From Candidatus Omnitrophota bacterium (GTDB lineage: Bacteria; Omnitrophota; Gorgyraeia; Gygaellales; Profunditerraquicolaceae): 27,230 nucleotides of DNA. Shown piece after piece: positions 6,617 to 8,551 of the stretch. Under the pieces are notes generated by a model that saw only the letters and a list, made by a program, of their open reading frames with translations, did no database searches and was not told the origin of the DNA. Within the stretch, counting starts at the first letter, position 1. Each line of letters starts with the position of its first letter. The stretch is from assembly GCA_028687525.1 (NCBI GenBank), contig JAQTZX010000001.1, forward strand, positions 1 through 27,230, read 5' to 3'. The translations under genes and the position numbers were made by a program.

Positions 6617-8551
6617 ATGCCGAAAAACGGCAGAGCGCAGGTAAAATTTTTCATTTATTTTTGTCTCTTTTTTTTCCTTCCTGTTTTATTACCGGATTCA
6701 TCTATTGCGGCTACTGTGCCCTTAGCTGATCCGGAATATGTCGGTTTTATTCAACAAAAGATTAATTCCTACAGCATTTATCCTCCCGAAGCAAGAGAAA
6801 AAGGCTGGGAAGGGGTAGTTAAAGTAAAATTCACAATTGCTGACGATGGCCGAGTGAAAGCCATGGAAATCGCTGAATCATCAGGCTACCCCCTTCTTGA
6901 TGCAGCTGCCATGATGGCTATTAAAGATGCCAGCCCCTACCCCTTCCCTGAAGCCTTCACCGGAAAGAGCGATTTTGAAGTGGTTATCCCGGTCAATTAC
7001 AAAAAATCTTTGCGGACACCAAGCTTAACTTTGGGAAATTACGATCCGATGATTGACCCTAAACAAGCGGAAAAAAACAACAAAATACCACACATGCCGC
7101 TTACCCAATCATTGGATCCATCGGTAAAAAAAATACCGTCGCCGCTTATCCCCCCTGGTAAATTAGCAATTTCTGATACATCCTATCAGGAAAAAACAGA
7201 AGCCGAGATAAATGAAAACTTTGACAGCGGCCTCGCGATCCCCATTCCCATGACAGAGGAACTGGAGAAACTAATAGACATAGCCCTCAAAAACAATCAA
7301 CCCGCAAAAGTCGCTCAGGCCGAAGTAGAACTTGCAAAGCTCAAAATATCAGAGGCCCAGCGCAATCTGTTCCCGGGCATGAAAATCAGCGCCTATATCG
7401 GAGATGGAGAAACTTACAAAGTCGGGTATACGGAACGGGAGACCAAACTCCAGCTTGACCAGCCCATTTTTCACGGAGGAGTTCTTCGGGATTCTATTCA
7501 ACAGGCAAAGGTAAATTATGAAATTACCAAGAGAAACTACGACCGCTTAAAGCTGGATATTATCCAAAAAACGGAAACCGCCTATTACAACCTTATTGCC
7601 GCCCGGATGCACATCAGAGAAAAAGAATCCCTTATTGTAGCCGCCGCGGACCTTTTGCAAAAGATCGAAAAATTAAGCTCTGTGGACATGATCATCCCTC
7701 TTGAAATGAACAGCTCAAGATCCTGGTTTGAACAATTGCAATTCCATTTAAAAACCATTAAGCAGGATTTGTATATGGCGGAAACAACCCTAAGACAAGT
7801 CTTAAACACTAAAGGGGTACCTAAGATAACCGCTCAATTCCTGGAGGCGAAACCGCTTGAACTACAAATGGATACCTGCTTACGCGCCGCCCTGATAAAC
7901 AGGCCTGAAATATACATGAGCGAGCTGCTGGTAAAATTCAACGATTACGGGCAGAAGATCGAACAAGACAAAGAAAAGATCGCGGTTAATTTTGAAAGTT
8001 CTTACGGGCACTATGCCGGTGCCTATAAAACCGAAAAGATGAAAGAGTCCGACAACTGGTATGCCGGATTCAAAGCTACTAAACCATTTGGAGGCAGCAG
8101 CTTAAGCGCCTCAGCAAGTACCACAGAAAGCCAGCCGCGCTTTGGGCAAACCTCGCCTACGAAATTAAACTCATTAAACGCGGAATTCAGCATATTAGAC
8201 AATCTTAAACGGCTTTCCGATAAAATGAAAACCGAGGTTGATCTCTACCGGGCTATGAGTGATATGAACGAAAGCGCCAAAACCGTAGCTTTTGAAGTCC
8301 AAGATTCTTTTCTCAATTACCAAAAAGCCGTCCTGCAGTTAAATTCAGCGGATACCGAAATGAAATACCGGATAAATGAAGCTGAAGTAATAAAGGTTCG
8401 TGCATTGACCGGAGAAACCAGCCTATCCAGCGCTATGGAGGCCATATTCAGCCTTTCCGACGCCCAGAGTAAATATGTTCAGGCCATGGCTGGGTATTAT
8501 ATTGCTATTGCCAACCTCAAAAAATCAACGGGTTATGGAATAAAATTATAA
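6617..8551 (+). CDS. Fusion protein: signal peptide + TonB C-terminal domain + Pro-rich linker + TolC-family outer-membrane channel (644 aa)
   Basis: TonB_C signature YPPEAREKGWEGVVKVKFTIADDGRV..IAESSGYPLLDAAA..AI..ASPYPFP. TolC/OEP signature LEKLIDIALKNN...AKLKISEAQRNLFP and a second-half ALINRPEI repeat. Confidence 0.9.
   Translation: MPKNGRAQVKFFIYFCLFFFLPVLLPDSSIAATVPLADPEYVGFIQQKINSYSIYPPEAREKGWEGVVKVKFTIADDGRVKAMEIAESSGYPLLDAAAMMAIKDASPYPFPEAFTGKSDFEVVIPVNYKKSLRTPSLTLGNYDPMIDPKQAEKNNKIPHMPLTQSLDPSVKKIPSPLIPPGKLAISDTSYQEKTEAEINENFDSGLAIPIPMTEELEKLIDIALKNNQPAKVAQAEVELAKLKISEAQRNLFPGMKISAYIGDGETYKVGYTERETKLQLDQPIFHGGVLRDSIQQAKVNYEITKRNYDRLKLDIIQKTETAYYNLIAARMHIREKESLIVAAADLLQKIEKLSSVDMIIPLEMNSSRSWFEQLQFHLKTIKQDLYMAETTLRQVLNTKGVPKITAQFLEAKPLELQMDTCLRAALINRPEIYMSELLVKFNDYGQKIEQDKEKIAVNFESSYGHYAGAYKTEKMKESDNWYAGFKATKPFGGSSLSASASTTESQPRFGQTSPTKLNSLNAEFSILDNLKRLSDKMKTEVDLYRAMSDMNESAKTVAFEVQDSFLNYQKAVLQLNSADTEMKYRINEAEVIKVRALTGETSLSSAMEAIFSLSDAQSKYVQAMAGYYIAIANLKKSTGYGIKL

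Follow-up and report, generated by a model that had tools for sequence, protein, structure and literature searches.

The window analyzed here, 27,230 nucleotides in length, covers positions 1 to 27,230 of contig JAQTZX010000001.1 (assembly GCA_028687525.1) from a Candidatus Omnitrophota bacterium and contains, at 6617..8551 of the forward strand, a gene for a 644-residue protein (P0001) in which a signal peptide, a TonB-type C-terminal domain (TonB_C), a linker and a TolC channel follow one another. On the reverse strand, divergent from this gene, lie a small basic Cys4 protein of 107 aa with no family match (6079..6402) and a giant exported protein of 1869 aa with a NosD-like β-helix region and a conserved N-terminal leader (73..5682), the latter with a c-di-GMP-I-GGC riboswitch 5' of it (5794..5908; Rfam, 68.5 bits vs a 59-bit gathering score). 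A sigma-70-like promoter, matched by consensus only, is placed at 6550..6578 on the forward strand, ~40 nt 5' of the TolC-gene start codon, and Rfam returned no riboswitch at threshold 5' of the TolC gene. Downstream, all on the forward strand, a second riboswitch of the c-di-GMP-I class (9011..9146; Rfam, 51.8 bits vs 35) precedes a gene block that includes two conserved exported proteins with no assigned family, of 618 aa (9171..11027) and 260 aa (17077..17859), the second of these directly 5' of two genes for multidrug-type RND permeases. The first permease (17961..22040) is AcrB/Mdt-like with a C-terminal tail of ~300 aa, the second occupies 22037..25387, and a periplasmic adaptor follows at 25413..26702 (RND_mfp, 208.9 bits vs a 94.9-bit cut-off).

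The TolC gene is intact, its 644 codons forming a single uninterrupted frame. A Sec-type signal peptide with neither an SHLS motif nor a lipobox, delineated from the family alignment and N-terminal statistics, accounts for residues 1-32 (6617..6712), TonB_C for residues 36-130 (6722..7006), a Pro-rich disordered linker of variable length and sequence for residues 131-211 (7007..7249) and the TolC body, of the non-lipoprotein type with two OEP repeats, for the remainder (7250..8548). The Pfam model TonB_C matches residues 54-129 with an E-value of 4.2e-18 (66 bits vs a 24.6-bit cut-off), the related TonB_2 model matches residues 40-124, and the NCBIfam model tonB_Cterm (TIGR01352) scores 64.6 bits against a cut-off of 27.1, while OEP (PF02321) is found in two stretches, 7262-7807 and 7871-8533 (E-value 4.1e-31). 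NCBIfam models of the TolC family match as well, with scores under their equivalog cut-offs, and TIGR01845, which describes the NodT/OprM lipoprotein type, gives only 21 bits; the protein, which has no lipobox, is not a member of the NodT/OprM lipoprotein subfamily. The sole name given to the fusion protein in public records is 'TonB family protein'; a TonB domain is present, yet the protein is not a TonB.

An AlphaFold2 model of the N-terminal domain, built from an 83-row alignment with a pLDDT of 80, has the order helix-helix-strand-strand-helix-strand as in TonB C-terminal domains (CTDs), including the extra N-terminal helix that is present in H. pylori TonB and in HasB. The best solved match found by Foldseek is the H. 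pylori TonB-CTD (6sly; TM 0.75, rmsd 1.9 Å, 35% identity), followed by HasB, FusB and other TonB CTDs, with TolA domain III ranked behind. Profile comparisons with the H. pylori TonB-CTD (6sly, 5lw8) and the Serratia HasB-CTD (2m2k) give E-values of 4e-18 and 8e-14, and the YP and SSG...LD..A motifs of these domains are shared. The preliminary description had read the gene as signal peptide, TonB_C (~6734-7000), Pro-rich linker and TolC (from ~7259), an anatomy and a set of positions with which Pfam, NCBIfam and the model are in agreement; the passage of the N-terminal domain through both TonB_C profile and fold matching removes the concern, raised at the same time, that it might not be a TonB_C at all. 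A TolA-like identity was considered and rejected. Domain III of TolA (Tol-Pal) has the same superfamily fold, and β-strand addition is its binding mode, but it is clearly more distant (profile E-value ~1e-4, Foldseek ranks 6 and 10-18) than the TonB CTDs, which are much the better matches, and free proteins of the same domain type are encoded in ExbB-ExbD-TonB operons with neither TolB nor Pal nearby.

In the full-length model the pLDDT is 85-90 over TonB_C, below 40 over residues 132-211, which are predicted to be disordered, and 90-96 over the TolC body. No additional strand pairs with TonB_C in this model, so that an intramolecular TonB box is not seen. For the TolC part the top Foldseek matches are the E. 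coli and Salmonella TolC structures (1ek9, 5bun; TM ~0.75 by target), with which the protein has in common two OEP repeats, an α/β-barrel protomer, accompanying RND and adaptor genes and the lack of a lipobox. It differs from them in ~180 extra N-terminal residues (TonB_C plus linker), in an extra β-hairpin predicted in the second OEP repeat, in having two RND genes and in its location at a giant-protein locus, and sequence identity is ~17%. A feature search of the ESM Atlas returned generic TolC clusters only.

In order to establish the spread of the architecture, a search that the preliminary description had proposed, we collected proteins combining PF03544 and PF02321. There are ~90 protein clusters (44-64% identity), some from contigs of 87-272 kb, and 22 distinct loci with the architecture, and almost all of them are labeled Omnitrophota. 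A species-level genome scan produced an independent assembly (L043) with a copy that is 89% identical over residues 1-644 and a further ~17 full-length relatives. A few full-length relatives are automatically labeled Planctomycetales, Dehalococcoidales or Patescibacteria, labels that may reflect mis-binning, and the remaining non-Omnitrophota matches in the scan are restricted to the TonB_C part. A candidate fusion in Nitrospirales was discarded, the loci with a 2.1 kb match span having proved to contain separate small TonB genes. An alignment of 28 family sequences has 25 invariant columns, 15 of them inside the 95-residue TonB_C domain, which is indicative of strong purifying selection on the domain. 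Mean conservation, expressed as the majority fraction, is 0.68 for TonB_C, 0.67 for TolC and 0.23 for the linker, the last of which has a median length of 67 aa in the family (range 11-243) and a Pro content of ~16%. An assembly chimera, against which the preliminary description had cautioned, or an annotation artifact by which separate TonB and TolC genes were run together, has a negligible probability in the face of an uninterrupted frame, ~90 clusters from independent samples on contigs of up to 272 kb, a full-length copy in another assembly and conservation that is continuous over the domain boundaries. The TonB_C-TolC fusion is real and conserved, and it is not a chimera.

The N-terminus of the fusion is that of an exported protein. 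A complete N-terminus is available for 84 family members, in which a median of 27.5 residues precedes the domain and includes a hydrophobic run with a median of 12 (range 5-19), followed by a conserved c-region of small residues, with TonB_C beginning a few residues later. None of the 84 has a His in the hydrophobic run, an SHLS-like motif is found in none of 86 members, and a lipobox-like motif occurs in only 2 of 86, the window protein not being one of them; we infer that the signal is cleaved. TonB and TolA are defined by the order SHLS transmembrane helix, periplasm-spanning region and C-terminal domain (PMC12204202). In the fusion protein the Pro-rich disordered region instead comes after TonB_C and joins it to TolC, and the domain is acidic and sits on an outer-membrane channel, in further distinction to H. 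pylori TonB and HasB. Because there is no SHLS transmembrane helix the fusion protein cannot be a TonB that is driven by ExbB/ExbD. Earlier inspection of the sequence had concluded that no inner-membrane anchor is left after signal cleavage and that the usual TonB topology is thereby inverted; the first statement is correct and the second is a fair description. Genes for ExbB and ExbD are absent from the locus, and neither was matched in the genome to which the window belongs, an absence that is best put down to its 71% completeness; ExbB is present in 16 of 17 genomes of the family of the window.

A hydrophobic N-terminus together with a Pro-rich spacer does bear a superficial resemblance to TonB, and an uncleaved signal anchor would make the protein a single polypeptide between the two membranes, running from the inner one via TonB_C and linker to TolC in the outer one, in the manner of a TonB-like bridge. 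However, a hydrophobic run with a median of 12 residues is too short for a stable helix anchor, it has neither the His nor the SHLS motif and is followed by a conserved small-residue c-region, and the order of elements would be anchor-CTD-linker and not anchor-linker-CTD. Outer-membrane barrel proteins, moreover, need to be released from the inner membrane before insertion by BAM. We regard the uncleaved anchor as effectively excluded.

The neighborhood of the TolC gene was compared over the 22 distinct loci with upstream DNA. A divergent giant gene is present in 21 of them, the product ranging from 1869 to >5367 aa with its N-terminal ~75 residues conserved, and the Cys4 protein is kept in 22 of 22. 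The homologue of the 618-aa protein (9171) is syntenic in most loci and, where the sequence extends far enough, it and the homologue of the 260-aa protein (17077) are followed by two RND permeases; the adaptor homologue is reached in three loci (the window, L013 and L059). In L013 the RND-RND-MFP genes begin 3 bp after the TolC stop codon, and L012 contains a second giant, of the C39/RHS type, with the same leader. TonB_C-TolC is thus the outer-membrane factor of a pump with two RND permeases and an adaptor inside a giant-protein locus. The giant proteins of Omnitrophota are the subject of a 2026 preprint, which records that two giant loci are flanked by 'TonB-domain' genes and says nothing further on these genes.

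The same kind of domain is found on other Omnitrophota proteins. In a sample of 200 genomes of the phylum, open frames with TonB_C fall into two classes, of ~170-300 aa and ~510-620 aa, the longer of which consists of Tad/Flp secretins built from T2SS-T3SS_pil_N, Secretin and one or two C-terminal TonB_C domains, encoded next to RcpC/CpaB and a pilus ATPase. A profile of the TolC-fused domain scores 58-80 bits on the secretin copies vs 30-42 bits on most classical TonBs. Alignment and tree separate a classical TonB type (support 100/99) from a second type with the extra N-terminal helix, and this second type is found in the fusions to TolC and to secretins as well as in some free TonB-like proteins encoded in ExbB-ExbD-TonB operons. 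Within the tree the fused domains form a group apart from the free ones (94/76). They also differ in charge, with median pI values of 4.8 for TolC-fused (n=76) and 5.2 for secretin-fused domains (n=8) vs 9.3-9.95 for free, ExbBD-linked CTDs. That the lineage has no Ton system and the domain has for this reason been put to a new job is an idea that had to be rejected, since 155 of 201 sampled Omnitrophota genomes have ExbB-family genes, and transporters with a Plug domain were found in 111 of 121, among them 7 of 7 from the family of the window.

TolC proteins of the phylum, for their part, do not always have TonB_C at the N-terminus. The more distant sister TolCs in the sample have N-terminal extensions in 40 of 40 cases, of between 66 and 1746 aa, in which Pfam recognizes TPR (12), AMIN (3) and TonB_C (2). 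The TonB_C-bearing ones among these (family f8) belong to plain OMF-MFP-RND operons, whose RND and adaptor proteins are 52% and 42-43% identical, respectively, to those of the window; no gene with the giant leader lies within 12 kb of them. When 1.84 billion representatives were searched exhaustively with a profile and architectures were counted in the best 77 matches, the domain type was found in secretin fusions (10), M56 peptidases (9) and OEP proteins (5), and in tandem arrays. One, two, three or six copies of TonB_C precede OEP, the six-copy array being that of P0252, and one or two copies follow the secretin; the named examples of tandem TonB_C-OEP proteins are again from Omnitrophota.

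The reading that we prefer, while holding it only tentatively, is that TonB_C serves here as a multivalent periplasmic docking module without a motor, with the wall layer or a wall-associated component as the favored target. The gene product is the TolC-type channel of a tripartite RND pump (two permeases and one adaptor). To judge from family membership it would be a homotrimer and, once the signal peptide is cleaved off, each protomer would begin with TonB_C, connected to the channel by a tether of ~80 disordered residues. Solved TolC structures suggest by analogy that this N-terminus would leave the channel at the equatorial belt, on the periplasmic side. Since there is neither a transmembrane helix with SHLS nor a drive by ExbB/ExbD, the domain would be a passive module hung from the outer membrane, and TonB_C, AMIN, TPR and other modules are interchangeable in the N-terminal slot of Omnitrophota TolCs. 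Through the tethered domains, outer-membrane channels might gain a multivalent hold on an envelope element that is either fixed or abundant; if this is the wall, binding would position and stabilize the channel. A generic docking or anchoring role is suggested by the combination of a shared slot, two unrelated channel families and a variable number of tandem copies. Such tandem copies are usual for wall-binding repeats that operate through avidity. The slot, too, is the one taken by wall-anchoring modules, often in tandem, on secretins and OEP proteins: AMIN, which occupies the same N-terminal position in the 3 of 40 sister TolCs noted above, is a peptidoglycan-targeting module on the PilQ secretin, on OEP proteins and on TonB-dependent receptors (PMC2572700).

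Not all of the evidence is in accord with an anchor in the wall. The acidic pI of the fused domains is hard to reconcile with a simple electrostatic attraction to peptidoglycan, itself anionic, and is weak evidence against such binding; peptidoglycan binding by E. coli TonB itself is said to rest on a single older report. TPR, the commonest module found in the slot, is a protein-binding one, and its abundance, like the acidic charge, leans toward a protein partner. The near-invariant pairing with a giant protein (21/22 loci) could reflect a specific partnership, and the only firmly established binding mode of TonB and TolA CTDs is β-strand addition to a protein partner (PMC12204202).

The preliminary description had proposed that the three TonB_C domains of a trimer could capture TonB-box-like segments of cargo or partner proteins, or bind peptidoglycan. 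Capture is the main rival to the anchor: the tethered domains would bind, by β-strand addition, a TonB-box-like segment of an exported protein encoded at the locus. Foremost among the candidates is the conserved mature N-terminus of the divergent giant protein; bound in this way, the protein would be held or guided at the channel while it is exported or displayed on the surface. The conserved first ~75 residues of the giants at the loci of this TolC subfamily, and the recurrence of the leader on the second giant of L012, are consistent with capture, as is a short strand-like motif after the leader, R-x-D-F-x-V-S-L-P, which we take to resemble the TonB boxes of E. coli. TonB boxes are genuinely bound by the closest solved relatives of the domain, H. 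pylori TonB and HasB; β-strand addition is the established mode of TonB and TolA CTDs, and the departure in charge from free TonBs is a pointer to a new partner. Against this, the same domain type is present on Tad secretins and on TolCs from plain operons with no giant gene, AMIN or TPR takes its place on sister TolCs, arrays of one to six copies are unnecessary for gripping a single strand, and the leader may be merely a special signal sequence. We know of no giant protein that is exported by an RND pump. A complex prediction for TonB_C and the mature N-terminus of the giant protein, with a partner alignment of only 7 rows and an uncertain partner fold, scored 0.04 vs a mark of 0.32, a result that weighs on neither side. 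Cargo capture is possible on this evidence but rather unlikely, and the comparative sequence data (the module slot, the Tad secretins, the one to six copies and the plain pump operons) favor generic docking or anchoring over cargo-specific capture.

A further possibility is that the binding partners are the TonB boxes on the cell's own TonB-dependent transporters; the tethered domains would then either cluster these transporters with TolC and the secretins or act as a regulatory brake that competes with energized TonB. Both Plug transporters and ExbB are widespread in the phylum, and the occurrence of the same domain type in ExbB-ExbD-TonB operons makes binding of TonB boxes by this type plausible. 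The fused domains are nevertheless acidic where the free ones are basic and form their own group in the tree, the examined loci show no co-localization with transporter genes, and no physiological rationale is known, so that we consider this role distinctly improbable.

The textbook association of TonB_C is with the transduction of energy from the inner membrane. A passive adaptor on the outer membrane, with no means of being energized, would add to what the fold is known to do. In the searchable literature we found neither TonB_C on TolC nor TonB_C on a Tad secretin described, and the main text of a 2025 survey of TonB and TolA evolution (PMC12204202) does not include TolC, secretins or Omnitrophota. 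Omnitrophota equip their outer-membrane channels with swappable periplasmic modules, among them TonB_C, AMIN, TPR and extensions of no assigned family that reach 1746 residues, with a bearing both on the organization of the envelope in ultra-small, host-dependent bacteria and on how the giant proteins encoded beside TolC get to the surface. Should the domain prove to keep giant proteins in place at the channel, or to be a general tether of outer-membrane channels, the finding would be of much greater importance. In its strongest form, which we judge unlikely, TonB_C at the locus would grip the leader of the giant protein at the TolC/RND exit, giving a new display or export route under c-di-GMP control, and tandem TonB_C on TolC and on Tad secretins would constitute a new tether between channel and envelope.

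Two sets of fusions from other systems offer a useful comparison. In AMIN-PilQ, AMIN-OEP and AMIN-TonB-dependent receptor proteins (de Souza et al. 2008, PMC2572700) a small periplasmic module, often in tandem, is likewise attached to secretins and OEP proteins; the AMIN fold is, however, unrelated to that of TonB_C, and its targeting to the cell wall has experimental support. The BlaR1-type Peptidase_M56 proteins with TonB_C from Bacteroidota, which make up 9 of the best 77 matches, are a second instance of the domain outside a canonical TonB. Such proteins are sensors or proteases anchored in the inner membrane, unlike the carrier of TonB_C here, which is an outer-membrane channel.

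Among the more distant relatives of the window TolC we have considered 40 TolC genes from a sample of the phylum Omnitrophota (loci L123-L162), and in every one of the 40 the OEP region is preceded by an N-terminal extension, of between 66 and 1746 aa, with one of the proteins reaching a total of 2222 aa (an example of such a gene is found at L153:1188-6425, + strand). Pfam domains in these extensions include TPR (12), AMIN (3) and TonB_C (2), and a Pfam search of the remaining ones found little or nothing. The genome of the window itself encodes a second TolC of 555 aa (G000:C29; L005:1030-2694, + strand) with an extension of ∼150 aa that contains no recognisable domain.

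The TonB_C type that is fused to TolC also occurs in tandem. Six copies of the same type precede OEP in one protein of 1183 aa (P0252) and three in another (P0101); a protein of 1080 aa labelled candidate division KSB1 (P0100) has 7-9 TonB_C copies and no other domain. Among the best 77 library matches to the TonB_C profile, nine have a Peptidase_M56 + TonB_C architecture and one combines TonB_C with CarboxypepD_reg and Plug, and is therefore a TonB-dependent-transporter-like protein with a TonB_C of its own. A further set of carriers is provided by Omnitrophota Tad/Flp pilus secretins (T2SS-T3SS_pil_N + Secretin). At five loci (L018:3806-5440, +; L021:7459-9210, -; L022:7436-9052, -; L024:3176-5014, +; L023:3219-5543, +) the C-terminus of the secretin is formed by a single TonB_C domain or by two of them, and the secretin gene is flanked by those for RcpC/CpaB and for an ATPase fusing ParA-like and T2SSE domains. 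Nearly all sampled genomes of the window's own family contain a TonB_C open frame of ∼530-570 aa, and all three of those inspected are secretins.

In the body of the window TolC, the structure model predicts four β-strands in the second OEP repeat rather than two. The extra predicted hairpin (aa 494-525; window 8096-8191, +) includes a P-R-F-G-Q-T-S-P-T motif that is well conserved across the TonB_C-TolC family, and might either widen the barrel or act as a cap or plug.

A 107 aa protein (window 6079-6402, -) adjoins TolC, as it does in 22 of 22 distinct loci. Its cysteines follow a conserved C-x2-C ... C-x4-C pattern, and its tail is helical and very basic. It matches no family in Pfam or NCBIfam; it may bind nucleic acid and regulate the divergent genes. 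Two c-di-GMP-I class riboswitches exceed Rfam gathering scores in the window, one ahead of the giant gene (5794-5908, -) and one ahead of the gene block beginning at 9171 (9011-9146, +); the TolC gene, situated between them, has none of its own at the Rfam threshold. In the MAG CAYMKG01 the giant / small / TonB_C-TolC arrangement is present twice, on separate contigs (L049 and L052) of a single bin.

The giant proteins have in common ∼75 conserved residues at the N-terminus (window 5455-5682, -, with equivalents in L010, L012, L013, L015, L016 and L017), in which a Trp/Arg-containing leader is followed by a hydrophobic region that terminates in T-W-A-A-R. Beyond this lie a short motif resembling a β-strand and another hydrophobic motif, whose last residues are P-S-A-x-A-A. 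At L012 a second giant (2686 aa; Peptidase_C39/SpvB/TcdB/RHS), located 3' of TolC, carries the same leader as the first.
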